64,000 bases of DNA from Patescibacteria group bacterium. GTDB taxonomy: Bacteria > Patescibacteriota > Patescibacteriia > UM-FILTER-42-10. Positions within the stretch are counted from its first letter, which is position 1. Each line of letters opens with the position of its first letter. The notes beneath the pieces are model-generated. The model was not told the DNA's origin. It searched no databases and saw only the letters and a list, made by a program, of their open reading frames with translations. The translations under genes were made by a program, and so were the position numbers. Below are positions 6,296 through 28,641 of the stretch, in pieces. The DNA lies in assembly GCA_041664365.1 (NCBI GenBank), contig JBAYKW010000006.1, positions 7,286 to 71,285 of the forward strand, written 5' to 3'.

Positions 6296-6354
6296 ATCTT
6301 ACCAAAGGCGGGGGAAGGTGTCAACCCCGTTAGAAATATCGATTTCTAACGGGG
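6296..6354 (-). promoter_or_regulatory. Putative rpsF-ssb-rpsR promoter (TTGACA-17-TAAGAT on minus strand) abutted by a 30-bp palindrome CCCCGTTAGAAAT-atcg-ATTTCTAACGGGG
   Basis: On the minus strand the palindrome (6325-6354) is immediately followed by TTGACA (6319-6324), a 17-bp spacer and TAAGAT (6296-6301), about 95 nt upstream of the rpsF ATG. The same palindrome-then-(-35) architecture recurs at 16972, 19989, 20861 and 26541-26569. Confidence 0.5.
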
Positions 6355-6364
6355 TCAAGGGTTA

Positions 6365-6403
6365 TATCCCGCAGGCGCGAATTCGAATTCGCGCCTGCGG
6401 ATA
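6365..6403. repeat. 38-bp near-perfect palindrome TATCCCGCAGGCGCGAATTC|GAATTCGCGCCTGCGGATA
   Basis: Read directly; 19/20 arm match; two adjacent EcoRI sites at the dyad centre. It sits between the rpsF promoter and the first GC-rich cassette. Confidence 0.6.
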
Positions 6404-6417
6404 GGGTTCAGTTCTGC

Positions 6418-6470
6418 AGAAAACCCGATTGCTGTAACCCCAAACTGGTCGCATGTCGGAGCGCGATAAT
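6418..6470 (+). repeat. Dispersed repeat family R1, copy A (CAGAAAACCCGATT...AAACTGGTCGCATGTCGGAGCGCG)
   Basis: The same ~50-bp motif recurs at 9557-9606, 19801-19847 and, inverted, at 26769-26818. There is a partial copy at 7929-7943 and a related CTGGTCGC box at 50478. Confidence 0.5.
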
Positions 6471-6711
6471 TGGACTGACCTGTCCGCCGTATCCGCCGGC
6501 CGGCGGAGAATGCGGGTCAGTCACCACACCCCCTGCGCCATTGACATAAATGGCAATCTGTATTAAAAGGTAGTCAACTGCCAAGCAGGAGTGCGAATAA
6601 CGTGCTTCAAGGCAAAGCAGTGGCCGGCGAATAATGTCGGTCGGCTCTTTCACGAACGGATGCTCCAGGGCGAATATCGTTCCGGCATCTGACAAACAGT
6701 GGAGGTAACTC

Positions 6712-7245
6712 ATGTTTCTCTGGCATCTCATCTGTATGAGCTACGGTTGGAGACGCCGCAAGTGGCAGAGGATCTTCTTCCTCGCTCTGCTCACGCCGCT
6801 CATCATCAACGGCATCTTCGGAAACATCTACGACTACTCGAAGTCGTGGAGCTACGCTGTTCTCTTCGGAGAGCTGGTGCTCTTCCTGTCCATTGACCGC
6901 GTAGTCAAGCGCCAGTTTCGTCGGGCGCTCAAGCGGAGGCTGAGGCCCGTCTGGGATTTTTTTGAGGGTAGTGCGCTTTCCGAAGAGAAGATCATACAGA
7001 GAACTGTTGATGTGTTTCTGGAAGCGATGGCTTGGCGACTCAAGCAACTGACCGAAGATCAGCGGTTGATCGCAACACGGGAGAAGAGTTTTCCCGGTCT
7101 CTGGACAGCCAAGCTGATGATCATCAACAATCTGGTTGCCGTCGCGTTGAAGGATTTCTGGCGGGTCCACTGGCTCGCTCGCGCCCTCGGTTTCAAGGTG
7201 AAGCTTCGCTGGTGGGGCTACCTCCCGAGCGATAACGCCGAATAG
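6712..7245 (+). CDS. Hypothetical protein, GC-rich paralog A (N-terminal TM segment)
   Basis: SD GGAGGT 7 nt upstream of the ATG. Paralogous to the next ORF (shared MF.W.LIC.S, MFGELVL..IDRVV, AMAWR...LTEDQR, ALKDFWRVHWLAR.LG). About 58% GC versus ~40% flanks. Confidence 0.55.
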   Translation: MFLWHLICMSYGWRRRKWQRIFFLALLTPLIINGIFGNIYDYSKSWSYAVLFGELVLFLSIDRVVKRQFRRALKRRLRPVWDFFEGSALSEEKIIQRTVDVFLEAMAWRLKQLTEDQRLIATREKSFPGLWTAKLMIINNLVAVALKDFWRVHWLARALGFKVKLRWWGYLPSDNAE

Positions 7246-7286
7246 GCATTACATACGGGCTCGCTGAACCACAGAGGAGACAAATC

Positions 7287-7829
7287 ATGTTCATTTGGCG
7301 TCTCATCTGCCTGAGTCGGAGGCGTAGCGGGAGAATGAAGTTCTTCTTTCTCTTTCTGCTCGCGTTCCTCCTGATCAACATGGTCCTCTTCCGCATCTTC
7401 AGCATCTTCGACTTCGTGTTGTGGAGGGCTCTCACGATGTTCGGGGAGTTGGTGCTCTACATCATCATCGATCGCGTCGTACTCTTCCTTCACTTCCGCG
7501 CGCTGTGGAAGAAGCTGACACCGCTCCGCGTTCTGTACAACAGCGACCTGGAGTCCAGGGAGGAGGTGATGGCCATCTTGGAAAGCTGCACCTTCCGGTA
7601 CTTGACCGCGATGGCCTGGCGGATCGAGTGTCTGACCGAAGATCAGCGGATTTTCTCGGAGAAGACGAAGTACTTCCCCGATTCCTGCGCAGGACAGGCG
7701 ATGGTCACCAACGACCTAGTCGCTCATGCGCTGAAGGACTTCTGGCGGGTCCACTGGCTTGCTCGCAGTCTCGGCGTGGATGTGTACAACAGCTGGAAGT
7801 ACTACGTTATGCCGGATGACGTCGAGTAG
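7287..7829 (+). CDS. Hypothetical protein, GC-rich paralog B (tandem duplicate of 6712..7245)
   Basis: SD AGAGGAGA upstream; the paralogy given for the previous ORF supports the coding strand. Confidence 0.55.
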   Translation: MFIWRLICLSRRRSGRMKFFFLFLLAFLLINMVLFRIFSIFDFVLWRALTMFGELVLYIIIDRVVLFLHFRALWKKLTPLRVLYNSDLESREEVMAILESCTFRYLTAMAWRIECLTEDQRIFSEKTKYFPDSCAGQAMVTNDLVAHALKDFWRVHWLARSLGVDVYNSWKYYVMPDDVE

Positions 7830-7924
7830 GTATCGCACGAAGCTCGGGCTCGAATCGTACACACGATTTGACCCGGGCATTTTTTATTTTACCTAAAACA
7901 AAAGCAACCGGTTATTATTCAAAC

Positions 7925-8029
7925 CGGTTGTTCGTCGGAGCGCGATTTCTAAACACTTATGGATTCCCGCTTTCGCGGGAATGACAGGGGGATACTAATT
8001 GTCATCCTCGGACTTGATCCGGGGATCCA
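7925..8029. repeat. Dispersed repeat R1 (partial) + R2 hairpin pair (TGGATTCCCGCtttcGCGGGAATGACA ... TGTCATCCTCGGacttgatCCGGGGATCCAT), copy B
   Basis: ~70-bp imperfect palindrome made of two sub-hairpins. Homologous copies lie at 19866-19940 and 26658-26749, with inverted partial copies at 9622-9645 and 9728-9794. Confidence 0.5.
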
Positions 8030-8131
8030 TTATTTTTTTGAATAAGTACAATAACAATTGATATGGTTGGTCAATCCGCGCAAATATGCTACATTAAAAA
8101 CCAGACCCTTTAATCATTAACGAAAAAATTA

Positions 8132-9439
8132 ATGACAAAAAGTGCCAAGGTTAGTATTTTCATAATTATCATTGTGCTAATTTTAGCCGGAATTCTCTGG
8201 TGGCTAAATACCAACACCTCATTTTTATCGCTCGGCAATAACGAACAGGAAATTATTAATAACAATTTCAATAACCAACCGGTAAATACAAGTAATACAA
8301 ACACAGCCGAAAACACCAACACCGAACCACAAGCCCCCGCGCCGGATCTGACTGAGCTTATCGAACAGGATCTGCAAATCCCCGCCCAGTACCAAACCGG
8401 AACATTTGCTACGGCGCGCAAGTTAAACTTACCCGCCGGGTTTACTATCAGTCTGTATGCCGCGGGGCTTACCGCACCGCGCTTTTTTGACTTTGACGAA
8501 GAGAACAATTTAATCGTCGCGGACAAAGGCGCGGGTAAAATATTTCTGCTGAAAGATACAAATCAAGACGGCACCGCGGATGAAAATATAGTGATTGACT
8601 CAGACCTCAAGACAATGCACAGCGTGGACTTTTACAAAGGGGATTTGTTCGCCGGAGAAGAGCATCAAATAATAGTCTACCGCGACTTACAGCCGGACGG
8701 CACTTACAGCGCCAAAGATGTATTAGTAGCAGACCTGCCGTCAGATGGCGGTCACTCCACCCGAACGGTGCTGGTCGGTCCGGATGAGAAGCTGTATGTA
8801 TCAGTCGGATCAAGTTGTAATATCTGCGAGGAAAAGGACGAACGCCGTGCCGCCGTCATGCAGTATGACCTGGACGGATCAAACGGCCGGGTGTTTGCCA
8901 AGGGCTTACGGAACGCGGTTGGCATAGCTTTTTACAAAGGGGATTTATGGTCGGTGACCAATGGAAGGGACCGCTTGGGTGACGACATCCCACAGGAGGA
9001 AGTGGATATTCTGGAAAAAGGCAATCATTACGGCTGGCCGTACTGCTATGGCAAAGGTGTGGTAGATCCCAGCTTCCCCGCACGCGCCGAGTTCTGCGCC
9101 AACGATACTACCGATCCGGTTTATCTCATGCAGGCCCATTCCGCTCCGCTGGGAGTTACCTTCAATGCTGAGAACAGCGTTTTCCCCGTACAACTTCAGG
9201 AAAACATGTTTGTTGGCTTTCACGGTTCCTGGAACCGCAGTGTTCCCACCGGATACAAAGTCGTGCGCATCAACACGGGCGACGCCAAAGCCGAGCCGGT
9301 TAACTTTATTACCGGGTGGCTTGATGAAAACGGGGATGTCTGGGGCAGGCCGGTGGGAGTCGGTTTTGACCAAAACGGCGTTTTCTATATTTCGGACGAT
9401 GAAGCCGGCGCAATCTACCGCGTAACCTATACCGAATAG
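8132..9439 (+). CDS. Glucose/sorbosone dehydrogenase-like beta-propeller protein (N-terminal TM/signal anchor, N/T-rich linker)
   Basis: Motifs typical of the PQQ-dependent soluble GSDH / L-sorbosone dehydrogenase family (GWPYCYG; propeller blades). N-terminal hydrophobic segment plus low-complexity N/T-rich region. Confidence 0.7.
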   Translation: MTKSAKVSIFIIIIVLILAGILWWLNTNTSFLSLGNNEQEIINNNFNNQPVNTSNTNTAENTNTEPQAPAPDLTELIEQDLQIPAQYQTGTFATARKLNLPAGFTISLYAAGLTAPRFFDFDEENNLIVADKGAGKIFLLKDTNQDGTADENIVIDSDLKTMHSVDFYKGDLFAGEEHQIIVYRDLQPDGTYSAKDVLVADLPSDGGHSTRTVLVGPDEKLYVSVGSSCNICEEKDERRAAVMQYDLDGSNGRVFAKGLRNAVGIAFYKGDLWSVTNGRDRLGDDIPQEEVDILEKGNHYGWPYCYGKGVVDPSFPARAEFCANDTTDPVYLMQAHSAPLGVTFNAENSVFPVQLQENMFVGFHGSWNRSVPTGYKVVRINTGDAKAEPVNFITGWLDENGDVWGRPVGVGFDQNGVFYISDDEAGAIYRVTYTE

Positions 9440-9556
9440 TTTCGGAATATAAAGCTTTAGCTTTATAAAAAAAGGTAAGGCTAAAGCCTTACATTCCATG
9501 TTGTTTTATTTTTTAGGGTAAGTTACCACCACACCCAAATTGGGTGTGGGGGCTTT

Positions 9557-9794
9557 CCAAAAAACCCAGATTTAATAATCCCAAACCGGTCGCATGTCGG
9601 AGCGCGCGGGCTGGTTTTAATTTGGATTCCCGGGCCAAGCCCGGCCAATTTGAATAAATCTAAGCCATACATATTTAATGCAAAAATTGGACGGGCAAGC
9701 CCGAGAATAACAGACTTACTCCCTCCTTGTCATTCCCGCGCAGGCGGGAATCCACCATTACTATAGCCCGACTATTGTTTTAGCGGGAATCCAC
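9557..9794. repeat. Composite repeat block: R1 copy C, then R2-like hairpins in inverted orientation
   Basis: CCAAAAAACCCAGATTT...AAACCGGTCGCATGTCGGAGCGCG (R1); TGGATTCCCGGGCCAAGCCCGG and TGTCATTCCCGCGCAGGCGGGAATCCA (R2-like). It separates the GSDH gene from the AT-rich island. Confidence 0.45.
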
Positions 9795-10082
9795 TTTTTT
9801 CTTGCCCTTGCTCTTTCTCTTATCAAAATTCCAGACAGAAGCAAACATTCCAATAACGATTAATATAAAGCCAACTGTGAGTAACCAGGGCGATTCATCC
9901 AAATTCCCATATCCTGTCATTCTTGATCCGAGGGACATAAAGGCAACAAGACATCCTATTCCTAGAAAGAAGATGATAATTGAAATTGTGAATTTGTTCA
10001 TGATGCTTAATAATTTTGCTCGCCTTTTACATTTTATGTGAAGGGGAAAGGACATTAAAAGCGTAAATCTCATTTGCCCCAA
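9780..10082 (-). CDS. Small 2-TM membrane protein (likely true start at internal Met MNKFTISIII, coordinate 10001)
   Basis: Hydrophobic helices IIIFFLGIGCLVAFM and LLTVGFILIVIGMFASVW; lysine-rich C-terminus. Its 3' end overlaps an R2-like repeat. Confidence 0.35.
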   Translation of the reverse strand: MGQMRFTLLMSFPLHIKCKRRAKLLSIMNKFTISIIIFFLGIGCLVAFMSLGSRMTGYGNLDESPWLLTVGFILIVIGMFASVWNFDKRKSKGKKKVDSR

Positions 10083-10087
10083 AAATA

Positions 10088-11809
10088 CTATTTATTTGTT
10101 TTATTGCTTAATCTTTCAACATAGTTAATAACATTTTTTATTTTATCCCACTTCATAACCTCTTCCGTTATCTCATTTGTGTGCATAATAGAATTTCTAA
10201 CAGGCCCAATCTCTTTAGTGTCTTGTTCAAGTCCTTTTCTATATTTTTTTGGTTTCTTATGATTTTTTTGAATTTTTAAATCAATTATTTCACCAAGATG
10301 AAATAAGTGGAGATAATTTAAATAGTGTTCCATTTTGGTAATTTTTCCTTTTAGCGCATGCCTTTCTTCATCTTGTTTTCTAAAGTTTCTAACTTCATTC
10401 AGAGTATTAATTATATCTTTTTCTTCTTCGCATCCATTTGCATCCAATTGTGCTTCATCAATACCTTTAATTCTTATGTATTCCCTAAAAATATTTTCTA
10501 AAATAAAGAGATCTTGATATACCATAGTATTTTTATACGAAAGCGCTCTAAGTTTTTCTTGGAGACTTTTTTTTGTGTTTTTTTCTACAACATTTTTATT
10601 GATTTCTTTTTGAAAGTCTTTCATTCTTCTATTTCTACTATCGTTCATTCTTACTTCATAAGGTGGTCTATTATCTACATCAATATCCCCCTCATCATTC
10701 TCTTTGTTTCTCCAAGGTGTCCAATCCTTTGATATAATATATTGTATTTTTTTTAATTCATCTAGAAATTTGTGGTAAAGAGGGTCATCCTTTATAATCC
10801 CTTCCCTGGAACTTGTAAATCTATCATTTTCATCATCTTCAAATCCATCAACATGTACTTCGCCATATAAATATTCCTCAACTATTTGCTTATTTGTTAT
10901 TTCTTCAAAAAGGTTTTCCTGTCTTAGTCTACCATTACAAAATAAATTTATTCCAGCCTTGTAATCTCCGCCAGAACCGCTTAATAATAAATTTCGAGGG
11001 TGTTTAACTGATGCTATAAATCCTTTTACAGTAATATTTTCTTGCTTAAAATTAAAAGACGTGTTTTCAATTATTTTTGAATTGGCTAAATATTTGTACA
11101 GTTTTTTTCTTTCTGTATTTTCTGTTTCTAGAAACCAAATAAATTGCGTTTTGTCGTGTAGCTCTTGCAAATCTTTTTGAGAAATTCGTTTGTTATTAAC
11201 TTTTATTATAAACTTATCATTCTTTTTTAAACTAAAAACGAAATTAAACTGAGTAGCAAGATATTTTCTAATAATTGCTTCGCTGTTTAACTTTGTTTTC
11301 ATTTTTTCAAAAATAATTTTTGTGCCAGAGCTTTTTTTGATTGGGAATAATTTTAAATTTTCTTGAGATAAGTCTTCTAGGTTATAAGACCCATCTTTCT
11401 TTATTTCTTTATCAAGTTTTGTGTTATTAATTATTCCACCGATTATCTTATTTTCTTTTTTCTTGGATAAGATTGTTACTTTTTGTGAAATAGATAACAT
11501 TGCTAGTTTGCCGATGCCTTTTCTACCAATAACACTCCTTTTTGATTTGTTGTCTTTATCCTCTCTTCTTGAATAGCCGACTTTTAAAAATCTTTTTTGA
11601 AAGTCATAGCTATCCATTCCCTTACCGTTGTCCTCAACAATCAATACGCCGTCTGTTATTGTTATTTTTACTTCTGTTGCCTCAGCATCCCAAGCATTTG
11701 AAATCGCTTCTGCTACTACTGTGGCAAAACTTCTATATAATCCTCTCCCAAGGTGATTTAGTACTTCCAAGGAAAATTCAAAATGGAATGGTTTACTATT
11801 TTGTGACAT
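10088..11809 (-). CDS. GHKL (HSP90/MORC-like Bergerat-fold) ATPase fused to C-terminal HEPN-like domain (Rx4H: VRNSIMHT)
   Basis: N-terminal ATPase motifs: EAISNAWDA (motif I E..NA.DA), VEDNGKGM (DxGxG), GRKGIGKLAML (G2 box). The C-terminal ~50 aa carry RNSIMH, matching the HEPN Rx4-6H nuclease motif. Start placed at the internal Met (MSQNSK...), giving a 14-nt overlap with the upstream MTase stop. The track start 11881 would overlap the MTase by 86 nt. AT-rich (~28-30% GC). Confidence 0.65.
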   Translation of the reverse strand: MSQNSKPFHFEFSLEVLNHLGRGLYRSFATVVAEAISNAWDAEATEVKITITDGVLIVEDNGKGMDSYDFQKRFLKVGYSRREDKDNKSKRSVIGRKGIGKLAMLSISQKVTILSKKKENKIIGGIINNTKLDKEIKKDGSYNLEDLSQENLKLFPIKKSSGTKIIFEKMKTKLNSEAIIRKYLATQFNFVFSLKKNDKFIIKVNNKRISQKDLQELHDKTQFIWFLETENTERKKLYKYLANSKIIENTSFNFKQENITVKGFIASVKHPRNLLLSGSGGDYKAGINLFCNGRLRQENLFEEITNKQIVEEYLYGEVHVDGFEDDENDRFTSSREGIIKDDPLYHKFLDELKKIQYIISKDWTPWRNKENDEGDIDVDNRPPYEVRMNDSRNRRMKDFQKEINKNVVEKNTKKSLQEKLRALSYKNTMVYQDLFILENIFREYIRIKGIDEAQLDANGCEEEKDIINTLNEVRNFRKQDEERHALKGKITKMEHYLNYLHLFHLGEIIDLKIQKNHKKPKKYRKGLEQDTKEIGPVRNSIMHTNEITEEVMKWDKIKNVINYVERLSNKTNK

Positions 11810-12848
11810 TAATATTATTAATATGTTTTTTAATCGTGTTTCCAATAATTTCACCAAGAACAGGGGGTACTGAATTACCAATATGCCTGGCGATAGTAGT
11901 CATGGATTTTATCGGACCAAAATCATAATTCACTGGAAAAGTTTGAAGCAGAGCACCTTCCCTTAAAGAAAGAGCCCTATTCTGTGTGGGGTGCCCAAAG
12001 CGTCCGGATCCTAAGTTAAAAAATTGAGTTGTTATTGTTGGTGCGACATTATCCCAACCCATCCGTCCATAAACTGATGTGTAAGTTTGCCCACTTTCTT
12101 TTTTATAGCAATCCGGTAACAGTTTTTTTTCCCAGTCTCGCCACGTACCATTTTGTTTTGATTGTTTTATTCTCTGAATGTTAATTTTAGAAAGGTTCTT
12201 GGCTTTATGTAATGGGTCATACTTAGAGGTTTGGCCAGCTTTGATTGGTGGCAATTTTTTTATAATTTCTTTAACAGTTACAAATGTTTCTTTAGTATGT
12301 GTTGGCTTTGGTATTTTTATTTCTCCAAGCCTTGAGGCAAGTAAAATTAATCTGCTTCTATTTTGCGGAGCACCGTAATCTGGTACGTATACTATTTTAT
12401 AATCAATATGATAATTATTTTTTTCAAGTACGTCTAAAAACTGTTTAAATATGTTAGTCTTTACTATTCCGCGTACATTCTCCATTGATACTATTTCAGG
12501 AAGTGTATCATCTATTATTTTTCCAAAGTAGCTGAGAAGATCCCACCTGTCGTCGTGATTTTTAACTTTATTTTTGAAAGAATGGGAAGAAAAAGGTTGA
12601 CATGGCGCACAGCCGACTAATACTTTGATAGCATTTGGGCTATATATTTTTTGTATTTCACCAGATCCATATTTTGTTAAATCAGCATTAATAAATTTTG
12701 TTTTATTATTCTTTTCGTATGCATATTTACACGTTTCATCATTATCAATACCAGCTATGACATTAATCCCAGATTTTTTCAATCCATAAGTCAATCCTCC
12801 TATTCCACAGAATAAGTCGATAGTCTCAATTTTAATTTTTGTTTGCAT
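11796..12848 (-). CDS. DNA (cytosine-5)-methyltransferase, Dcm family
   Basis: Motif I DLFCGIGG, motif IV GCAPCQPFS (PCQ catalytic Cys), motif VI ENV, C-terminal LSLREGALLQTFP and GNSVPPVL (motifs IX/X). 350 aa. Confidence 0.9.
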   Translation of the reverse strand: MQTKIKIETIDLFCGIGGLTYGLKKSGINVIAGIDNDETCKYAYEKNNKTKFINADLTKYGSGEIQKIYSPNAIKVLVGCAPCQPFSSHSFKNKVKNHDDRWDLLSYFGKIIDDTLPEIVSMENVRGIVKTNIFKQFLDVLEKNNYHIDYKIVYVPDYGAPQNRSRLILLASRLGEIKIPKPTHTKETFVTVKEIIKKLPPIKAGQTSKYDPLHKAKNLSKINIQRIKQSKQNGTWRDWEKKLLPDCYKKESGQTYTSVYGRMGWDNVAPTITTQFFNLGSGRFGHPTQNRALSLREGALLQTFPVNYDFGPIKSMTTIARHIGNSVPPVLGEIIGNTIKKHINNINVTK

Positions 12849-12945
12849 AGAATCTATGCGGTTACTAAATGTTTTATAAAATAATTTTCATAACAAAGCG
12901 GAAAAAACACCTCATTGTCCCTGCTATAAAAGGAATTAAAAATTT

Positions 12946-13359
12946 TTATCCCCAAGTAGCGGGCTTATTTTTTAGCTCTTCAATTTCCTTTTTTACTTCA
13001 TCAAGCGCACCCACATTAGATGTACTTGGGTTTAATTCAATTTTGGGCTTTGCTTTGATCTTATCGACCAGATCTTTTGTGCTTTTGTGCGATCGTTTCC
13101 AAGCGATGCCGAAAATAATTGCGAGAACCAGTCCCAATATGCCAAAAATGTAGTTCAAAAGTAATGACCAGGTAAACTCGGGTGCATTTTGTTTGGTGGT
13201 TTCAGCGATTGCATTTATAAATGTTGGTAACCCAAAGAAAAGACTTGCAATGCAAACGTCTCTCCATAGAGGTTGCGCTTTTTCAACGATATTATTCAGT
13301 TCATCTTCAGTAACTGAATAGCAGGTTCTGTCCGGATCGTGATGTATATAATCAGTCAT
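12946..13359 (-). CDS. Hypothetical 2-TM membrane protein
   Basis: Two hydrophobic helices (VCIASLFFGLPTFINAI; LLLNYIFGILGLVLAIIFGIAW); lysine-rich coiled C-terminus. Start placed at the Met giving an 8-nt overlap (ATGACTGA) with the upstream gene stop. The alternative track start is 13380. Confidence 0.4.
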   Translation of the reverse strand: MTDYIHHDPDRTCYSVTEDELNNIVEKAQPLWRDVCIASLFFGLPTFINAIAETTKQNAPEFTWSLLLNYIFGILGLVLAIIFGIAWKRSHKSTKDLVDKIKAKPKIELNPSTSNVGALDEVKKEIEELKNKPATWG

Positions 13360-13621: not shown

Positions 13622-13725
13622 TTTGTAATTATATTATTACATTTGGTTTAACAAATTTCTGTTTGATTCACTATTGCTATTTATTATTTGGTACTTATCT
13701 TATTTAAGCTATGATATCAGTTTAA

Positions 13726-13786
13726 CACCAAGGTAGTAACTGGGCAATAATCACAAATAACCCCACCTTTTTGCCGAAAGCGGGGA
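13726..13786 (+). repeat. Dispersed repeat family R4, copy 1 (CACCAAGGT..TGGGCAATAATCACAAATAACCCCACCTTTTTGCCGAAAGCGGGG)
   Basis: Related copies at 16374-16416 and 16899-16945. Confidence 0.45.
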
Positions 13787-13791
13787 AGCGC

Positions 13792-18372: not shown

Positions 18373-18374
18373 GA

Positions 18375-21103: not shown

Positions 21104-21622
21104 ATGCAAACGACGAGTTACGCTTACAACCACACAACCCGCGGGAGCATAATGCTCCTGCACATCTACCAGATCATCATGACGGTGGTCGTCATGGCGG
21201 TCTACCTTCTCGCCTACGACAAGATGATTGCCACTGCTGGCCCGCTGGGTCCATTGACCGAGTGTGGGTTCGCGGTGGCTGTCGCCTGCGCGGTCCTTAC
21301 CGCTTCTGCGGCAGGGGCGACGGCTCACGTCGTCTATGGGCGAGGAATCTGGATGGGGATCATCCTGTTCGTCATCGCAGTCGCCGGGGCATTCGGTACT
21401 GCATTCATGACGATCGCTGCGATGGTCGTGGCGCCACCGTTGGTGCCGGCTATCATGATCGTTTCAAGTGCAATTGTCGTGTCACTCGTGGTGTGGTCCT
21501 TGGCCGATATCGGGTCAAAAATCACCCACTCCAGGGACGAGACGCCGAGAAAGATTCTGTCTGCGATCCTGCAGACGATCGTCATCAGTGCCTTCGTCCT
21601 GACGCTCAGGCTCTGGTGGTAG
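21104..21622 (+). CDS. Hypothetical polytopic membrane protein, second P1 cassette (start re-assigned to MQTTSYAY..)
   Basis: The track ORF starts at 20909 inside the conserved leader. The homologous position of the cassette-1 start codon (GTCAGTCATGCAAA) is 21104. 172 aa, 4 TM. Confidence 0.5.
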   Translation: MQTTSYAYNHTTRGSIMLLHIYQIIMTVVVMAVYLLAYDKMIATAGPLGPLTECGFAVAVACAVLTASAAGATAHVVYGRGIWMGIILFVIAVAGAFGTAFMTIAAMVVAPPLVPAIMIVSSAIVVSLVVWSLADIGSKITHSRDETPRKILSAILQTIVISAFVLTLRLWW

Positions 21623-21777
21623 TCTCTCCGCGAGATGTCCATCATCCACCACCCTCATCGTTTGGAGGTGATACATGTACATTCAAGACCGGAGCACGTC
21701 TTTCAAGAACTGCTCACCCGCCAGGTAACTGACGGGTTTTTTCTTTGCCCCCCACACCTGTGAACAAGTGTGGGGGG

Positions 21778-21806
21778 TTGACATAAAATCACCTTTGTGA
21801 TAAGTT
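21778..21806 (+). promoter_or_regulatory. P2 promoter copy 2, preceded by palindrome CCCCCCACACctgtgaacaaGTGTGGGGGG
   Basis: See 18375-18404. Confidence 0.45.
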
Positions 21807-21874
21807 GATATGCTTCTGGAGGCTTTGTCGAACCTGCCGGTATCGCTAATGCCGGCAAAACGAGGGAGAAAACC

Positions 21875-22261
21875 ATGTTCAAAGTGCCACAGCCTTACTT
21901 CGAGGGCGCACCGACGACTGCCGAAGAACGCAGGGTTCTGCAATGTGCCGGCTACATACACATGACCGGCCTGTGGTTCCTTACCCCTGACCGTGGCCAC
22001 GGCGTCCACGTTAATTACATGGGCCAGGGCATCGTCCAGGAAGAGATGGGCACGTGGAATGAATTCGACGGACAGTCGGTGATCGTCACCAAGCGGGGCG
22101 AGGTCTGGATGAAGACCGGCAGTAGTGTGACTTCCGCCACCGCACTGCTTTGTCCAAACGGACGGAGCGACTACAAGCCTTTCACCCAGACTGACCGGCC
22201 GATTGACGGAATGATCCGCCGGATCGCCGATCCGAACGACGGCTTGACCTACGTTCCTTGA
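21875..22261 (+). CDS. Hypothetical 128-aa protein, family X copy 2
   Basis: Paralog of 18477..18866. Conserved 3' module TGATYGCACAYYGCCGT..ACGGCACCCCGCT...GGGTATTTTTTT (terminator). Confidence 0.6.
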   Translation: MFKVPQPYFEGAPTTAEERRVLQCAGYIHMTGLWFLTPDRGHGVHVNYMGQGIVQEEMGTWNEFDGQSVIVTKRGEVWMKTGSSVTSATALLCPNGRSDYKPFTQTDRPIDGMIRRIADPNDGLTYVP

Positions 22262-22381: not shown

Positions 22382-22876
22382 TTATAATACCTTGGCGTAG
22401 AGATAAGCGTCATGCAGTTCATCACCGCGCCTGGCCGCTTTGCGCATTAGTCCTTCTTTTTTGTATCCGCATTTGATTGCTACTTTTTGACTGCCGGTAT
22501 TTTTCGTATTCATTTTAATTTCAATTCTAACCAATCCCAGTTTCCGGAATCCAATTTTCTCCAGCAGTTTCACCGCTTTGGTGGTGATACCCCTGCCCCA
22601 ATAGGTTTCGTCCAGAAAATACCCGATCTCCCCGCACAGTTTGTTATCCGGGTTGATTTTAATCCCGCAACCGCCAACCATCTTTGTGCCGTACATGATA
22701 GCGAAGTGCTGGTTCAGGCTTTTTTTATTCTGCTTGGCGTGTTTCTGCAGGATTTTTCTTTCCTCCGCAACTGATTTCGGGCAGATCCGGAAATAAATAA
22801 AATTGGGGTTGTTGAGAATCTCATAAAACCTTTTCGCGTCGGATACTTTTTGTTTGCGGATTGTTACTTTGAGCAT
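22382..22876 (-). CDS. GNAT-family N-acetyltransferase (RimJ/RimL-like)
   Basis: 164 aa; acetyl-CoA binding region (GYFLDETYWGRGITTKAVKLL) typical of ribosomal-protein N-acetyltransferase-like GNATs. Confidence 0.7.
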   Translation of the reverse strand: MLKVTIRKQKVSDAKRFYEILNNPNFIYFRICPKSVAEERKILQKHAKQNKKSLNQHFAIMYGTKMVGGCGIKINPDNKLCGEIGYFLDETYWGRGITTKAVKLLEKIGFRKLGLVRIEIKMNTKNTGSQKVAIKCGYKKEGLMRKAARRGDELHDAYLYAKVL

Positions 22877-22887
22877 TAATTAGTCGG

Positions 22888-23571
22888 CTATGTTTTTTTA
22901 GTACCTTTTTTTACAATTTTTTTCTCAATGCTTTTTAAATCCTGCAGAATATGTTGATATGATCCTATTGATCTCATAACACATAATCCCGGAAGTGTCT
23001 CACCAGTTGCTCTGTTCGGTACATATGCTGAAATTATGCCGGAGAACTTTGGCTCACCATTTTTATCAGCATAAAAAACGGGTCCGCCACTAACTCCATT
23101 AATTGCGACTCCGTCAACTAAATATGATTCTTCCTTGGGAATGTGGCAACTGATATGACCGGAAAAAAAACAAAGATCATTAGCAGCTACGGACGGAAAA
23201 CCGCACCAACCGACTTCAAAACCTTGTTGAAGAATTTCGTCTTTGTCTATCAGGTCCAAAGGTTTTGGTATTATTGGAAGATCCTTATTTTTAAATAGGA
23301 TAAATGCCACATCTTTCTCAGGATATCTTGTAATTGTTCTGTCGTTGTGCTTTAAAAGGACAGATTTTCCTGACTGATGGTGAATAATTCTGATTGGTTC
23401 CTCCCAGTCATCTTCATGAGAAATAACATGATCCGCAGTAGCAATACCAAGGAAATTGGTTTTTTCAGAATAAAAAATCTGAAATCCGGTTCCTGATACA
23501 CTCGGAGTTTTGATTTTGAAAATATATGGTGTAATTTTCATTAAAGGATTATGCCAGTTTATTTGTTCCAT
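22888..23571 (-). CDS. Trypsin-like (S1 family) serine peptidase domain protein, no signal peptide
   Basis: Catalytic triad context: TADHV (His), DVAFILF (Asp), GVSGGPVF (Ser in the GxSGGP motif). Confidence 0.55.
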   Translation of the reverse strand: MEQINWHNPLMKITPYIFKIKTPSVSGTGFQIFYSEKTNFLGIATADHVISHEDDWEEPIRIIHHQSGKSVLLKHNDRTITRYPEKDVAFILFKNKDLPIIPKPLDLIDKDEILQQGFEVGWCGFPSVAANDLCFFSGHISCHIPKEESYLVDGVAINGVSGGPVFYADKNGEPKFSGIISAYVPNRATGETLPGLCVMRSIGSYQHILQDLKSIEKKIVKKGTKKT

Positions 23572-23593
23572 AGATTTTATATAAGAATTAATT

Positions 23594-23866
23594 TTATTTG
23601 TTATTGTGATATGAATTTAACCACCATTTCTTAAATAAAGGAATTGTTAAAGTGGAAAGAAAAAATGCAACGGCAGGGACAATCGCATTAATAAAAGGTT
23701 TAGGCAATTTTGCAAAAAAGAAAAAGATAACTATAACAATATAGGTCAGCAGTAGGATAATAAATTTACGGATCCAGCTGGTTTCCCATGCTTTATCCGC
23801 CTCTACACGTTGATTTCGCTTTTTTATTTCTTCTATTTCACGTTGTAAATCGTCGAATGATGGCAT
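23594..23866 (-). CDS. Small 2-TM membrane protein
   Basis: 90 aa; charged N-terminus then hydrophobic helices. Confidence 0.4.
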   Translation of the reverse strand: MPSFDDLQREIEEIKKRNQRVEADKAWETSWIRKFIILLLTYIVIVIFFFFAKLPKPFINAIVPAVAFFLSTLTIPLFKKWWLNSYHNNK

Positions 23867-23896: not shown

Positions 23897-24988
23897 TTAA
23901 CTAGTTGTTGTTTGTTTTGAATCCTGCTGGATTCGTCGGCAACGTTCCAGATGGTAATCATAAAAAATACATCCCTCGCCGATACAACTGGTACGCGGGC
24001 AGACTTCCGCCAGACGGTTCGGGTCAATTGCTTTTTTCAAAATCTCTTTTATTTCATCTAAACTAAGTCTGGTTGGTGTCACGCCTTCCGGTGCGATCCC
24101 GCCGTTCTGAATGCTGTTGGCGGTCGTATCGTAATACCATTCTTCCACCCCTTTCAGGCGGGCAGATTTTGCCAGTTCATCAATACTGGTGATTTCCAGA
24201 ACTGCATCTTTTTTGCGGGCTTCTTCAATACGTAACATGACAGCGACGTCTTTAAGATTGATATCGCGCATTTGCCTGGTGATCAGGTTCGTGTGTCCTG
24301 AAGATAATCGCTGTACTACCACATCCGCTTTGGTGTCCGGGTTTGCCCTTAGGAACCCCACCAGACTGACGTCGTCATTTTCCACGACTACTATTTTAAC
24401 CAGCTTCTTGCCCTGAAACACTTCAAACTGGTCGGTCTTATTATCCTGCTGGAGTTTTTCCCATTCCTGCGGGAGGACAGTCATTCTTTTCCTCTCTTCT
24501 CTATAATGTGAAACAAAAATCGGCATAACGATATTGATAATCTTCTGCGGTTCACTCTGGTATTCGCGGTTCAGATTCATGATCAGACCGGAAAGTCCAA
24601 AGGCCCGGTCGATCGGATCATTGGAAATAATTCCCTTACCTTCCAGATCGTCTCTTTTGACGTAAGTTAGTAGTTTCTTCAAAGCGGGGTCGTTTTCCAC
24701 TTCCAAGTATTTTGCCACCAAAGTGGTGGCACATTCGCCCGTGTTGTCTTTGCCACCTTCCTGGGTATGGTGGTCGAATTTTCCTCCTCCCATATCAATC
24801 AGCAATATCCCTTCAGCTTCATAATCGTCGGTAGTCTTACCTTCCGGCACGCTGTTCCAGAATTCTATTTTACTATTTCTGACCCCCGGGAATTTTTCTT
24901 CACCAAAAAGCTTCAATAACATGATCGCCACAATGTTGTCCGGATGCGGACGGGGGAAGATTACAATTGTATGGATTGGTTGGGGCAT
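23897..24988 (-). CDS. DHH-family phosphoesterase-like protein (NrnA-like core) with C-terminal Cys-rich extension
   Basis: Motif I-like HPDN, motif II LLIDMGGG, motif III FDHH, DHHA1-like SSGH. The C-terminal CPRTSCIGEGC...C cluster is not typical of NrnA. Confidence 0.5.
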   Translation of the reverse strand: MPQPIHTIVIFPRPHPDNIVAIMLLKLFGEEKFPGVRNSKIEFWNSVPEGKTTDDYEAEGILLIDMGGGKFDHHTQEGGKDNTGECATTLVAKYLEVENDPALKKLLTYVKRDDLEGKGIISNDPIDRAFGLSGLIMNLNREYQSEPQKIINIVMPIFVSHYREERKRMTVLPQEWEKLQQDNKTDQFEVFQGKKLVKIVVVENDDVSLVGFLRANPDTKADVVVQRLSSGHTNLITRQMRDINLKDVAVMLRIEEARKKDAVLEITSIDELAKSARLKGVEEWYYDTTANSIQNGGIAPEGVTPTRLSLDEIKEILKKAIDPNRLAEVCPRTSCIGEGCIFYDYHLERCRRIQQDSKQTTTS

Positions 24989-25292: not shown

Positions 25293-26408
25293 CTAGCGGA
25301 TGCACTCCTGAACCAGCTCAACGATCTTGAGCGAGTGGATGCACGACGCCGGCGTGTGACTGCCGGTCCGGGACCAGTTCTGGAGGGAGTTGAACTCCCT
25401 CACGAAGAACCAGATCTTCTCCGGCTTGATTGCGTAGTTGGGGCTGGCGAAGCGTTCCTGGATCAGGATGGACTCGAACAGCTTCTCGAGATGAATCCGG
25501 GACGCAACGCGCTTGTTCGTCAGGATCGAGATGTTCCCTGACCTGCGCCTGATGACCAGGAGGTCAGCCAGGTTCAGATCGAAACATGCCGACGCTACGT
25601 CCTGGTTATCGGTCTCGAGAAGAACTCCCCGGAGACCATTGCCGAACGTGAACGTCCGCGACTTCTTGAAAATCTCCACTGCACGCAGTCTTGCCTGGTG
25701 GCGGGCCTTCTGGTGTTTCGACCAGATCTCCCGCCAGAACTTGACCTCGGAGAGAATCTCCTTGTCAGTGGCGCCGTTGATGGCCATGTTGCGGATGTAT
25801 CCGGAGAGACTCCAGCTACTCTTGTGAGCATGGAACCGCCAGTACTCAGCCATGACCTCGTCGCTACGCAGCTCCGGGTCAGGCTTTCCGCGCGCCATCA
25901 GATGCGCGTCGATGACCTTGAACATCTGGTTCAGAACATTCTTGTTCGCGAATCCCATCTTGCACATCGACAAGATGATCAAGGCGAACGCGTAGGGCAA
26001 GCCCTTCAGCTCACCCGTCTTGTTGTTCTGGTTGGCGAGTGCCACCAGTTCCAACGGTGCGGGGTGGTTGATGCCGAAGTCGTGAGCCACGACTCCGGAA
26101 GAGGAGCCGAACCCACGCTCGCGGTACATGTTGAAGTCCACGTCCACGAGGTAGAGGTTGCGCGAACGGGCGCTCTTCTTCTGAGCGTCCGTCAACCAAA
26201 CTCGGTCGGCGAACTCCAGGGTCGTGTCCTCGAGTTTCCACCCGAGTGTGTGCATCGCCAAGTAAAGCGCGACGACCTTATCGAATTTCAAGGCCGCGCT
26301 GAGAAGTCCCTGATACCGCATCATGGGGTTTCCTCCTGCCATGACAGAGGTTGTTTGTCCCGTTGTTGGGACTTTGTTCCGCGTGAGCAGAACGTTGTCG
26401 AAGAGCAT
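25293..26408 (-). CDS. Hypothetical 371-aa protein, GC-rich cassette driven by a P1-type promoter
   Basis: SD GAGGAG 8 nt upstream of the ATG (MLFDNVLL..; track start 26435 is 9 codons further up). About 56% GC. No recognisable motifs. Confidence 0.5.
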   Translation of the reverse strand: MLFDNVLLTRNKVPTTGQTTSVMAGGNPMMRYQGLLSAALKFDKVVALYLAMHTLGWKLEDTTLEFADRVWLTDAQKKSARSRNLYLVDVDFNMYRERGFGSSSGVVAHDFGINHPAPLELVALANQNNKTGELKGLPYAFALIILSMCKMGFANKNVLNQMFKVIDAHLMARGKPDPELRSDEVMAEYWRFHAHKSSWSLSGYIRNMAINGATDKEILSEVKFWREIWSKHQKARHQARLRAVEIFKKSRTFTFGNGLRGVLLETDNQDVASACFDLNLADLLVIRRRSGNISILTNKRVASRIHLEKLFESILIQERFASPNYAIKPEKIWFFVREFNSLQNWSRTGSHTPASCIHSLKIVELVQECIR

Positions 26409-26540
26409 ACTATGTCTCCTCGTATGAATCGGCAATTTAGAATTGTCGGCTCAAACGAAAAGCTTTCAGGTACCAATGGAGAGATACTGAAAGCGCCGAT
26501 TGTTGACATAGCTCTCTCCAGAATTCTATGTTAACAGGCC

Positions 26541-26569
26541 AGTATATACCTAAATTGGGTTTTTGTCAA
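26541..26569 (-). promoter_or_regulatory. P1 promoter copy 3 (minus strand): AACGGGG-TTGACA-N17-TATACT, identical -35/spacer to 20020-20048
   Basis: Reverse complement of 26541-26580 reads CCCAAACGGGGTTGACAAAAACCCAATTTAGGTATATACT. Only the right half of the palindrome is retained. Confidence 0.5.
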
Positions 26570-26657
26570 CCCCGTTTGGGACAAAGGGAGAGCAAGCTCT
26601 CCACCTACATTCTTGCATCAGTACTTTTTAGCTAATATTAGCAATTAATTAATTCTA

Positions 26658-26818
26658 TGGATTACCGCTGGAGTTTATCCCCGCGAAGGCGGGGACGGGA
26701 ATGACTTGTTGTTTTGATTGTCATCATCGGGCTTGACCCGGGGATCCATTACAATAATATATTGAACCAGCGCTCCGACAAGCGACCAGTTTGGACAACC
26801 AAAATCGGGTTTTCTGCA
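26658..26818. repeat. Composite repeat copy E: R2 hairpin pair (26658-26749) then R1 in inverted orientation (26769-26818)
   Basis: Reverse complement of 26769-26818 = CTGCAGAAAACCCGATT..AAACTGGTCGCTTGTCGGAGCGC. Inverted relative to copy D. Confidence 0.5.
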
Positions 26819-26877
26819 GGGCGGAACGCAACCCCACCCTTAACCTTTAGACAATAGACAAGTATAATTAAAACACT

Positions 26878-28641
26878 ATGCAGAAAAAACTGGAAAACAT
26901 ACCACAGAAGCCGGGTGTCTACTTTTTCAAGGACCAGAAGAATAACATTCTTTATATTGGCAAGGCAACTAACCTGAAAAGCAGGGTGCGTTCGTATTTC
27001 CAGAAATCCGCTTCTTTGGAAATCACTAAGCAGATCATGGTGCAGAAGGCGGTGGACGTGGACTATGTAATAGTGGATTCGCCGACGGAGGCACTGCTAC
27101 TCGAATCCAGTTTAATTAAAAAATACAAACCGCCCTATAATATCAGTTTGAAAGATGATAAATATTTTGTGTATCTGAAAGTAACATTGGATGAAGAGTT
27201 TCCGCGGGTGCTGACGGTGCGCCGGGTGGAAAAAGATAAAAACCGTTACTTCGGTCCGTACGCGTCCGCCACGGCGGTGAAAAATACTTTGCATCTTTTG
27301 AAAAGAATTTTTCCGTATAAAATTTGTAAAAATCCGCCGGAGCAGCCGTGTCTGGGATATCATATCGGCCGGTGTCTGGGACATATTACGGATACAAATA
27401 CGAAAAAAGATTATCAGCAGATCGTCCGGGGGGTGATCAATTTTCTGGAAGGAAAAAATACCAAAATTGTTTCCGATCTGAAAGCGGAAATGAAACTGGC
27501 ATCCAAGCAGAAGAAGTTTGAAAAGGCGGCCCGGCTGCGCGATCAGATTTTTTCCATCGGGTCGGTAATGGAACGGCAGAAAGTGGTGTCCACCAAAAAA
27601 GAAAACCAGGACTTTGTCAGTATCGCCCGCACTGAAAGCATTGCCGCGATCAATCTGTTCATGGTGCGGGAAGGAAAACTGATTCACCAGGAAAGTTTTC
27701 TGCTGGAGCATGTGAAAAACCGACCGGATGAAAAACTGCTGGAGTCATTTTTGAGCCAGTATTATTCACAAGTTTCCCAATTCCCGAAACAGATTTTTAT
27801 TCCCGTAAATATCAGCGATTTTGAAATACTGGAACAGTTCACCAAAGCTAGAATCACCGTTCCGAAAAGAGGACGCAAGCAGAAACTGATTAAACTGGGA
27901 GCGATCAACGCCGAGCAGTATTTGCGCCGGCATGAACTGGAAGTTGCCGGCCGTGATCAGATCGGCATGAAAGCAATTCAGGAGCTTGCGGAGAAACTGG
28001 GCCTGAAAAAACCCCCGCACCGGATCGAGGCATATGATATTTCCAATATCCAAGGTACCAACGCGGTTGGATCCATGGTGGTTTTTACGGATGGAATGCC
28101 GGATAAAGCGCAGTACCGTAAATTTAAAATCAAGACCGTTAAAGGTGCGAACGATCCGGCAATGATGCGTGAGGTATTGAGTAGAAGGTTTGAAAAAGTA
28201 AAAGCCGAAATGAAAAATCGCTGGTTGTTGCCGGATCTGGTTATTCTGGACGGAGGTAAGGGGCAACTGAGCTCGGGGGTTTCGGTCTTGGCGCGTGGCG
28301 GAATTAAAATCCCGATTGTGGCACTTGCTAAACAAGAAGAAGAAATATTTGTTCCGGGAAAAAGCGAATCAATCAGGATCTCCCACGATTCGGAAAGTTT
28401 GAAAATACTGCAGAGGATCCGCGATGAAGCGCACCGGTTTGCAATCGGATTTTATCGTTCAAGACACAGGAAGGCGACACATCGGTCGCTTCTGGACGAG
28501 ATTCCGGGAGTCGGACCTGTCTCTAAGAAAAAACTGATCCGGGAATTCGGTTCGGTGCAGGGGATTCGTGATGCTGATGTTTTGCAATTGGAAAAAGCGG
28601 TGGGTAAAAAATTAGCAAAAATTGTGAGAGAATATTTATAA
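26878..28641 (+). CDS. uvrC: Excinuclease ABC subunit C
   Basis: N-terminal GIY-YIG (GVYFFKDQKNNILYIGKATNLKSRVRSYF), UvrBC-interaction, RNase H-like endonuclease and C-terminal HhH domains. 587 aa. Confidence 0.9.
   Translation: MQKKLENIPQKPGVYFFKDQKNNILYIGKATNLKSRVRSYFQKSASLEITKQIMVQKAVDVDYVIVDSPTEALLLESSLIKKYKPPYNISLKDDKYFVYLKVTLDEEFPRVLTVRRVEKDKNRYFGPYASATAVKNTLHLLKRIFPYKICKNPPEQPCLGYHIGRCLGHITDTNTKKDYQQIVRGVINFLEGKNTKIVSDLKAEMKLASKQKKFEKAARLRDQIFSIGSVMERQKVVSTKKENQDFVSIARTESIAAINLFMVREGKLIHQESFLLEHVKNRPDEKLLESFLSQYYSQVSQFPKQIFIPVNISDFEILEQFTKARITVPKRGRKQKLIKLGAINAEQYLRRHELEVAGRDQIGMKAIQELAEKLGLKKPPHRIEAYDISNIQGTNAVGSMVVFTDGMPDKAQYRKFKIKTVKGANDPAMMREVLSRRFEKVKAEMKNRWLLPDLVILDGGKGQLSSGVSVLARGGIKIPIVALAKQEEEIFVPGKSESIRISHDSESLKILQRIRDEAHRFAIGFYRSRHRKATHRSLLDEIPGVGPVSKKKLIREFGSVQGIRDADVLQLEKAVGKKLAKIVREYL

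Follow-up and report, generated by a model that had tools for sequence, protein, structure and literature searches.

The closest described counterparts of the locus considered here are replacement-type islands, such as the 'flexible genomic islands' known from streamlined bacteria of the sea, and integration hotspots between core genes, a concept reportedly set out by Oliveira, Touchon and Rocha in 2017. It occupies the interval between rpsF and uvrC (6.3–26.9 kb) in a 64,000-nucleotide (nt) stretch of contig JBAYKW010000006.1 (assembly GCA_041664365.1) of a Patescibacteria group bacterium, hereafter the window, and consists of interleaved AT-rich, GC-rich and host-like genes. Genomic islands with restriction-modification (R-M) systems among their contents have been reported in Patescibacteria (PMC12455944). 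Like a flexible island, the rpsF–uvrC locus has a fixed position between core genes and a content that varies in close relatives, with no integrase or tRNA target, a defence-rich cargo and a turnover that may be due to homologous recombination on the conserved flanks. It differs in that about half of it is a conserved lineage-specific backbone rich in G and C at third codon positions (GC3) rather than strain-specific cargo, and in that locus-specific repeats and shared promoter, leader and terminator modules subdivide it into cassettes. The reading favoured here, with a probability of roughly 0.55, is that of a flexible hotspot without an integrase, in which homologous recombination drives turnover and a weak, persistent fixation bias favours GC, the likeliest cause of which would be GC-biased gene conversion (gBGC).

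Other known systems resemble the locus in part. With defence islands it shares clustered and variable genes: a type II R-M pair of restriction endonuclease (REase) and Dcm methylase, a Fic protein of SoFic type and a trypsin-like peptidase, to which the relatives add SocA/Panacea and AAA_21-like genes. Its GC-rich genes, however, have no PADLOC match (three scanned) and are conserved, not patchy. The succession of small cassettes, each with one gene and set apart by repeats but lacking a recombinase in cis, recalls clusters of attC sites lacking integron-integrases (CALINs), but here the cassettes have their own promoters, mixed orientation and an order largely conserved between genomes. The vls locus of Borrelia, an antigenic-variation locus driven by gene conversion and with a GC content well above its genome, is comparable in its paralogous cassettes, conserved flanks, hypervariable cores, relative GC-richness and recombination-driven change. 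In contrast, each copy here has a promoter and a terminator, several unrelated families are involved, and no segmental conversion tracts were seen. Bacterial gBGC (compare Lassalle et al. 2015, PMC4450053) likewise raises GC3 where recombination is frequent, by a weak G/C fixation bias at synonymous sites. The offset at this locus is 25–40 GC3 points, gene-specific, stable across deep divergence and accompanied by strand asymmetry, whereas the effects seen in bacteria reportedly amount to a few GC3 points. Atypical GC is routinely read as recent transfer; at this locus, the rule is sound where genes are AT-rich but misleads where they are GC-rich. The locus is also an illustration of the way in which a hotspot without an integrase can be built in a streamlined genome.

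Composition and layout of the rpsF–uvrC region

The window sits within ENA metagenome contig ERZ27249449:k141_1477485 (132.8 kb; MEGAHIT assembly; NCBI locus tags WCW66_). The relatives compared were L003 (the same as L002 and as the NCBI metagenome-assembled genome (MAG) SO_2016_GW1_134), L015, L016, L017 (a 0.5-Mb contig with 37% GC) and L023 (the same as L006, a 1.18-Mb contig), whose housekeeping proteins are 76–97% identical to those of the window. The arrangement rpsF, about 10 kb of other genes and uvrC is directly visible in L003/L002 and L017; L015, L016 and L023 each cover one end of the locus only. In total, four or more related genomes retain the rpsF–uvrC synteny together with much of the backbone. 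Overall, rpsF and uvrC flank 10–20 kb of differing cargo in the window, L003 and L017, and L015 and L023 show one flank with a cargo of their own. From rpsF to uvrC, the window contains the following features (ORF, open reading frame; CDS, coding sequence; REP, repetitive extragenic palindrome; aa, amino acid).

6300–6358, minus: rpsF promoter with upstream palindrome TTGACCCCGTTAGA..TCTAACGGGGTTGACA; the same module heads GC-rich cassettes
6399–6464, plus: junction repeat b, copy 1 (..AAAACCCGATT..CCAAACTGGTCGCATGTCGGAGCGC); L023 has a b copy at the same position
6712–7829, plus: tandem paralogs G1a (6712–7245; GC3 0.74) and G1b (7287–7829; GC3 0.83), 43% aa identity, no Pfam match
7908–8030, plus: partial b copy and two REP-like hairpins (GGATTCCC-N8-GGGAATGAC; GTCATCCTCGG..CCGGGGATCCAT)
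8132–9439, plus: GSDH/DUF7133-like gene with b copies on both sides, host-like GC
9540–9753, plus: b copy 2 (9540–9605) and inverted hairpins (9623–9643, 9729–9753)
9780–13621, minus: DUF3955 gene, a conserved anchor, then AT-rich cargo 1
Cargo 1, minus: GHKL-type type II REase (10088–11881), Dcm methylase (11796–12848), two small ORFs
13886–14650, plus: MerR/TipAS regulator, a conserved anchor, 89% aa identity to L023
14776–16817, minus: AT-rich cargo 2 (small membrane ORF, SoFic-like Fic gene, MazG-like gene), absent in L023
16968–18866, plus: G2 unit with promoter module at 16968–17038, GC3 0.54–0.84
Genes of the G2 unit, plus: G2a 17117–17389, G2b 17573–17833, G2c 17873–18100, G2d 18119–18340, G2e 18477–18866
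18922–19609, minus: DUF1048 and PadR pair, host-like GC
19775–19940, plus: b copy 3 and two hairpins
19987–20831, plus: G3a cassette; palindrome and promoter TTGACA-17-TATACT, leader of about 165 nt, CDS 20223–20753, terminator 20764–20831
20857–21749, plus: G3b cassette; CDS 21104–21622, unrelated to the G3a CDS
21774–22261, plus: G3c, paralogous to G2e; separate promoter core GGGGTTGACA
22382–23866, minus: GNAT gene, then cargo 3 (AT-rich trypsin-like peptidase gene and the 90-aa ORF h90)
23897–24988, minus: h363, a conserved phosphoesterase-like gene, host-like GC, GC3 0.50
25293–26581, minus: G4 cassette; CDS 25293–26408, leader 26409–26540, promoter 26541–26581, GC3 about 0.81
26626–26843, minus: hairpins (26626–26749) and b copy 4 (26770–26843), inverted relative to copy 1, beside the uvrC promoter

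Against a GC content of 43.0% for the whole window and a GC3 of 0.469 ± 0.051 for 20 housekeeping genes, the 11 ORFs G1a/b, G2a–e, G3a–c and G4 (the G genes) reach a GC of 0.51–0.63 and a GC3 of 0.54–0.84. Ten of them lie at GC3 0.68–0.84, that is, 4.1–7.3 standard deviations above the host genes, the exception being G2b (0.54). When two GC-rich ORFs from elsewhere in the window are counted in, the 13 differ from the host genes with p = 2e-6 (Mann–Whitney test). At the opposite extreme are the REase, Dcm, Fic, MazG-like and trypsin-like genes and h90 (GC3 0.23–0.30; AT-rich ORFs overall 0.23–0.36). The enrichment is confined to coding sequence, with a GC of 0.38–0.50 in the spacers between GC-rich genes, and falls mostly on third codon positions, the amino-acid shift being modest (GARP/FYMINK ratio of 1.0 vs 0.75). 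The coding strand is asymmetric, with C3>G3 and T3>A3, and A3 drops to 0.03–0.10.

The mosaic that a sequence-only reading of this DNA had described between rpsF and uvrC is, by these values, real, and its list of segments (paralog pair, GSDH-like gene, R-M island, MerR/TipAS, Fic, MazG-like, PadR with DUF1048) is correct. Its figures need adjustment: the host genes have about 45% GC instead of 40%, and the excess in coding GC, put at some 20 points, amounts to 10–15 points overall and 25–35 at third codon positions.

Residency and substitution pattern of the GC-rich genes

Orthologs of G1, G2a, G2c/d, G2e/G3c, G3 and G4 occupy the same positions in related genomes: G2a and G2e/G3c in L003, G2d in L015, and G2a, G2d and G3c in L023. 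In every relative their GC3 is 0.65–0.86, compared with 0.47–0.57 in host-like neighbours and 0.15–0.27 in cargo. The ratio of nonsynonymous to synonymous divergence (dN/dS) in the annotated frames was 0.25–0.3 for G2a, G2e and G3c, with dS not above that of the neighbours, which marks these three as coding genes with fast protein evolution. More diverged pairs gave higher ratios, about 0.5 for G1a/G1b and for G4, and 0.86 for G2c/G2d. G2e and G3c are paralogs with 57% aa identity, and G3a (GC3 0.75) and G3b encode proteins with multiple transmembrane segments.

Outside the clade, the families are nearly invisible. The G ORFs had no match in Pfam or PHROGs (10 of the 11 scanned against both), and searches of phage, plasmid and IMG/VR collections found no relatives of the G genes searched, of the leader or of b. 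The sole other G1 homolog was found at the same site in L023; a word-indexed protein search returned three proteins each for G1 and G2e and only the query itself for G4. An exhaustive search of 1.84 billion proteins recovered 74 representatives of the G4 family, which the word-indexed one had missed. In public gene calls (L001, L009), G3a and G4 are wrongly assigned to the opposite strand, as a 177-aa minus-strand product at 20186–20761 and a 273-aa plus-strand product at 25698–26534. Protein databases thus hold antisense translations, and such miscalls, frequent for ORFs of this kind, hide the G families from searches. Every GC-rich gene does contain a long antisense ORF that spans almost all of it; functional antisense genes were rejected because the ORF lengths are not conserved between orthologs, as expected of a by-product of high GC3.

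G4 offers a direct internal comparison, being homologous to its host-like neighbour h363 (hhalign probability of 98.8%, E = 1e-16). The two genes adjoin in 8/8 loci in which both were detected, down to 50% h363 identity. In seven genomes, the GC3 of G4 lies about 0.32–0.36 above that of h363 and tracks the background GC (G4/h363 values of 0.82/0.50, 0.85/0.48, 0.84/0.51, 0.86/0.51, 0.73/0.38, 0.73/0.37 and 0.57/0.25); the difference is +0.07 in the fragmentary L013. G4 evolves much faster than its adjacent paralog. Judged by sequence comparison, the GC-rich genes are old, resident, clade-specific, syntenic and fast-evolving members of the locus, not recent imports.

Synonymous third-position changes were polarised with outgroups by parsimony triplets and sorted into those from A/T to G/C (W→S) and from G/C to A/T (S→W). 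Five G families pooled gave 20/57 W→S and 53/574 S→W changes, with an equilibrium GC3 (GC3*) of 0.79, and nine host-like genes pooled gave 220/1055 and 226/1213, with a GC3* of 0.53 (Fisher test, p = 1.4e-7 for S→W and 0.019 for W→S). In other words, the G genes undergo S→W substitution about half as often as their neighbours and W→S substitution about twice as often, which implies a small extra fixation bias (delta-B) of ln(3.4), about 1.2. For G4 alone, GC3* was 0.82–0.86 and 0.69–0.75 in two subclades, equal to the present GC3, while the h363 values were 0.46–0.56 and 0.30–0.37. Local hypermutation was rejected, since synonymous change in the same genomes affected about 9.5% of sites in G4, less than the 18% or so in h363. 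The codon preference of the G genes moves towards every codon that ends in G or C, even AAG and GAG, two that highly expressed host genes avoid (r = 0.24); this argues against tRNA adaptation or ordinary translational selection, and codon adaptation to high expression was rejected on the same grounds. The polarised spectra show the GC-richness to be not a residue of foreign composition but a stationary state, maintained at synonymous sites by a fixation bias that is weak but persistent.

Turnover of the locus and possible causes of the high GC3

The AT-rich part behaves differently. Defence models matched the REase (REase_II, E = 2e-50), the methylase (type II methyltransferase/DrmMII, E~1e-91) and the Fic protein (SoFic, E = 8e-38), and the trypsin-like peptidase of cargo 3 had a weak LmuA-like match. 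The gene order in L023 is rpsF, b, G1, b, DUF3955, cargo, MerR, G2a, G2d-like, DUF1048, PadR, b, G3, G3c-like, GNAT and h363. Between its DUF3955 (91% nt identity) and MerR (84%) genes, where the window has the REase and Dcm genes, L023 carries a 771-aa AAA_21-like gene and a 101-aa gene. The equivalent AT-rich slot in L003, after a block of b and hairpins, holds genes of 479, 80 and 192 aa, and the cargo of L017 includes a SocA/Panacea pair. The Fic/MazG block is absent from L023, h90 had no match among the relatives, and the GSDH-like gene had none in L023, L003, L015 or L017; where the window has b-GSDH-b, L023 has one b copy, placed between the G1 module and DUF3955. By this comparison, the AT-rich segments are swapped-in defence/toxin-type cargo, with different genes at a given site from one genome to the next. 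Because the cargo differs at fixed slots between shared anchors, the mosaic is best described as a conserved backbone with variable inserts. Conservation across relatives, which the sequence-only reading had taken to argue against mobility, thus applies to the backbone, whereas cargo, copy number and some CDS alleles differ.

Signatures of recombination were found around the G genes. The terminators of G3a and G3b are 99% identical and their leader blocks 87–95%, but the CDSs are only 27–54% identical at the nt level (BLASTP E = 0.07). Orthologous terminators in other genomes are only 83–93% identical, so that either the flanks were homogenised within the genome or a CDS was replaced. The G4 of the window is 35–38% identical to every other G4, these being 68–81% identical to one another, although its surroundings are kept (leader 89%, downstream flank 83%, h363 93–96% to the closest relatives). 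Such a pattern would reflect either a CDS-precise allele replacement or a lineage-specific acceleration. In L003, a G3 cassette stands between two b copies beside rpsF. The borders of cargo and CDS replacements lie inside conserved sequence.

Repeat families mark the segment borders, as the sequence-only reading had proposed; within the window, they occur only inside 6.3–26.9 kb, and 0 of 100 shuffles reached the observed counts. The junction repeat b (about 70 nt) lies at module borders in direct and inverted orientation, with copies 1 and 4 inverted relative to each other and bracketing the whole island. Its sole match among 185,579 species genomes was this same locus in a relative's MAG (two copies, both here), and it had no match in IMG/VR. 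No convincing fold or dyad symmetry was found in b (consensus of −3.4 kcal/mol), and most of its positions are conserved between genomes. Dispersed MITE-like elements (miniature inverted-repeat transposable elements), a possibility raised for these repeats, are not borne out in the window or, for b, in the relative's MAG. Two further expectations held: each cassette is a discrete unit with a promoter and a terminator of its own, and no recombinase occurs in the window, in which about 60 ORFs were scanned for recombinase, integrase, transposase, relaxase and phage domains and none was found. The locus is no integron, insertion sequence (IS) element, transposon or classic integrase island, as had been stated.

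The known systems were rejected on the following grounds. An integron or CALIN does not fit with the lack of IntI and attC structure and with promoter-bearing cassettes on both strands; by inspection, no attC site was found, the sole GTTAGAG/CTCTAAC pair being a 28-nt perfect hairpin in reversed order and fused to a −35 box. A prophage, integrative and conjugative element or integrase island was rejected for the absence of such domains and of phage or IMG/VR similarity, the only tRNA being at 33618. For an IS element, composite transposon or MITE, there is no transposase, and b and the hairpins are confined to the locus within the window, as is b in the relative's MAG. A diversity-generating retroelement was rejected as there is no reverse transcriptase-like ORF and mismatches between repeat pairs are spread over all four bases. 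A silent-cassette antigenic-variation locus was rejected since all paralogs have their own promoter and terminator.

The hotspot reading favoured here would assign the locus three layers. The first would be a resident backbone of the GC3-rich, fast-evolving G1–G4 genes and the host-like DUF3955, MerR, PadR/DUF1048, GNAT and h363 genes; the second, AT-rich defence/toxin-type cargo dropped into fixed slots between the backbone anchors; the third, the locus-specific repeats, namely the palindrome and promoter module, the 5′ leader, the shared terminator, the REP-like hairpins and b. Anchors and repeats would supply homology for RecA-type recombination, probably after DNA uptake, and recombination would swap cargo, duplicate cassettes, homogenise flanks and replace whole CDSs while the regulatory flanks stay. 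Biased gene conversion in G genes that are unusually active in recombination would most probably be the cause of their high GC3. Homologous recombination is assumed as the agent because the 64 kb contain no recombinases.

Several points weigh against this interpretation. Few W→S changes were available (20/57), and parsimony triplets drawn from one family are not independent of each other. The C3>G3 and T3>A3 asymmetry of the coding strand is not predicted by gBGC, and the GC excess ends at CDS borders, which gBGC explains only if the flanks are constrained or monomorphic. Conversion bias itself is deduced from co-occurrence only. The divergence of the window G4 could be an in-situ acceleration, no donor allele having been found among the 1.84 billion representatives, and a trans-acting site-specific enzyme encoded elsewhere in the genome could still take part. 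If biased gene conversion is nevertheless the cause, the locus would be an unusually strong and gene-specific bacterial case, and high GC3 would serve as a sequence-only marker of recombination-hot, fast-evolving genes in uncultured symbionts.

The strongest competitor, possible but clearly less probable, leaves the architecture and residency unchanged and attributes the high GC3 to selection on synonymous sites without biased conversion. Such selection might act on mRNA stability, on A/U-poor transcripts resisting endoribonuclease toxins or RNases, on expression tuning or on the avoidance of internal AT-rich signals. It would account for an enrichment that is strictly coding amid host-like spacers and lies mainly at third positions with little amino-acid change (the GARP/FYMINK ratio of 1.0 vs 0.75), and for the asymmetry with C3>G3 and an A3 of 0.03–0.10; the strong promoters and structured leader held in common suggest a co-regulated set, and the bias needed is weak, about 1.2 in units of effective population size times selection coefficient (Ne*s). 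However, the codon preferences are unlike those of highly expressed host genes, and we know of no functional reason for such selection in the G genes. Unrelated families (membrane, cytosolic and small proteins) are all affected, a better fit to a regional or process-driven cause, and the recombination signatures coincide with exactly the G genes. Were selection the cause, it would point to a new constraint on transcripts.

More speculative, and rather doubtful, is a dedicated diversification regime in this clade, in which co-regulated genes with a common promoter-operator and structured leader RNA would be kept hyper-recombining, with rapid protein divergence, CDS replacement and local GC-biased conversion as the outcome and high GC3 as its signature. 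If that were true, GC3-richness could be read as the mark of 'recombination-addicted' genes that serve host interaction or anti-defence in reduced symbionts.

Site-specific recombination at b or at the hairpins by a trans-acting enzyme, either Xer-like as in pdif modules or orphan integron-like, is improbable. The position of b at module junctions in both orientations and around the whole island, its absence from the rest of the window and of the relative's MAG, the b-GSDH-b segment facing a single b in L023, and the b-flanked G3 cassette at a different position in L003 all speak for it. On the other hand, b shows neither dyad symmetry nor an attC-like fold (consensus of −3.4 kcal/mol), the promoter-adjacent palindrome has its R′/R″ order reversed and spans only 28 nt, the cassettes carry promoters in mixed orientation, and most b positions are conserved. 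Moreover, the CDS-precise replacements (G4, G3a/b) are bordered in leaders and terminators, not at b.

Still less credible is the view implied by the sequence-only reading, in which the GC-rich segments would be a novel sort of foreign or mobile mini-cassette, recently arrived from GC-rich donors by recombinase-free mobility and with host promoters added. A strongly atypical composition (z = 4–7), ORFans with no Pfam, PHROG or PADLOC match, repeats at the borders and a copy number that varies between genomes would suit it, but the orthologs stand at the same positions and are still GC-rich in genomes separated by a dS of about 1, and the spectra are at equilibrium near GC3 0.8 with no amelioration. 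G4 is a paralog of a host-like neighbour, linked to it down to 50% h363 identity and with a GC3 that tracks the background, and G1, G2e and G4 have few or no homologs beyond close relatives and none in phage, plasmid or viral collections.

Finally, a chimeric metagenome mis-assembly joining DNA of organisms with different GC, conceivable for a single MEGAHIT contig from a complex sample with repeats at the composition transitions, is excluded for practical purposes. Contig L010 (9,579 nt), which Logan assembled independently from run SRR6484324, matches window positions 9730–19308 at 100% identity, a stretch that takes in the R-M block (AT-rich), MerR and Fic, the G2 genes (GC-rich) and the DUF1048 gene (host-like). 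The same AT-rich/GC-rich interleaving recurs in several relatives, whether assembled by JGI, ENA, NCBI or Logan, among them the 0.5- and 1.18-Mb contigs. The chimeric joins at GC transitions that had been named as a concern are refuted by L010 for 9.7–19.3 kb.

Shared regulatory modules and minor features

The sigma70-like promoters attributed to the GC-rich genes were recovered: the best matches of the region, 10–11 of 12 positions, lie directly upstream of G2a, G3a, G3b, G4 and PadR. A palindrome fused to the −35 box (TTGACCCCGTTAGAG-N6-CTCTAACGGGGTTGACA) heads rpsF, G2a, G3a and G3b. In G4 and G3c, the module is reduced to the GGGGTTGACA core, preceded by a different hairpin or by none. In the rpsF operon promoter (6300–6358, minus strand), the module reads CCCCGTTAGA..TCTAACGGGG-TTGACA, as in the three cassettes. 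Its recurrence suggests a common operator or regulator for the ribosomal-protein operon and the G2a, G3a and G3b cassettes.

A structured 5′ leader of about 165–250 nt precedes G3- and G4-type genes in six genomes. Its copies are as follows.

Window: 26409–26540 (minus), 20059–20222 (plus), 20928–21103 (plus)
Relatives: L003 5900–6125 and 15513–15730; L015 6395–6645; L016 740–990; L017 6820–7075

The consensus predicted by RNAalifold (−34 kcal/mol) has 36 pairs, of which 10 show compensatory changes; it pairs GGAGAGA with UCUCUCC and includes a long conserved hairpin and, distally, a hairpin with covariation. Inspection revealed two more elements outside this consensus: a terminator-like GCUUUCAG...CUGAAAGC-U5 hairpin, which interleaves with the GGAGAGA/UCUCUCC pairing, and a Shine–Dalgarno-like AAGGAG surrounded by a small hairpin. 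The leader had no match in Rfam; in the window as a whole, Rfam yielded tRNA-Leu only at the gathering threshold and nothing credible in an E-value search. The predicted structure makes the leader a candidate for a new cis-regulatory RNA.

The REP-like hairpins occur in two forms.

GGATTCCC-N8-GGGAATGAC: 7961–7985, 9729–9753 (minus), 19867–19891
GTCATCCTCGG..CCGGGGATCCAT: 7989–8030, 19899–19940, 26708–26749

Similar sequence is present in L017 at 6653–6907. If mis-called as ORFs, these hairpins would translate to 'MDSRFRGND'-type peptides. A separate 28-nt repeat (AACCCCACCTTTTTGCCGAAAGCGGGGA) at 13759–13786, 16388–16415 and 16931–16958, near the homology edges around MerR and Fic/MazG, may be another junction element. 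Among the host-like anchors, GNAT has 69–91% aa identity to its relatives. PadR is about 66–74% identical at the nt level to PadR genes on Bacillales and Streptomyces plasmids, with one match including part of DUF1048, which suggests an older inter-phylum transfer into the patescibacterial backbone.

The AlphaFold2 model of G4 (mean predicted local distance difference test, pLDDT, of 89.5) has a predicted two-domain DHH/DHHA1-like fold. Foldseek matched it to the PAP phosphatase 8a8k, the PF0399 DHH domain 5yh1, NrN (9lq9), a SAM-AMP-binding enzyme, and RecJ, with probabilities of 0.9–1.0 and E down to 1e-5, but with low template modelling scores (0.3–0.45). Pfam DHH matched neither G4 nor h363, and sequence searches of the PDB with both profiles found nothing; we infer DHH-family membership of h363 from its homology to G4. 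h363 keeps GGGKFDHH (motif GGGxFDHH) and SSGH, and G4 has no DHH, with NMYRER in the window copy and a KYH consensus in the family. The pair may combine an enzyme with a decoy or regulator for a nucleotide signal. A model of G2e, built from four sequences, had a pLDDT of 41.6 and was unusable.

Elsewhere in the window, two solitary GC-rich ORFs at 40412–40933 and 55280–55600, both on the minus strand, have a GC3 of 0.73 and 0.74 and no Pfam match and stand amid host-like genes, so the GC3-rich gene class is not restricted to the rpsF–uvrC locus. More AT-rich stretches (GC 0.29–0.37) lie at 51.3–54.5 kb and 57–58.7 kb, with ORFs for a PEP-utilizer domain protein, two low-molecular-weight phosphatases, an AAA kinase-like product and several unannotated proteins; they may be additional acquired segments.

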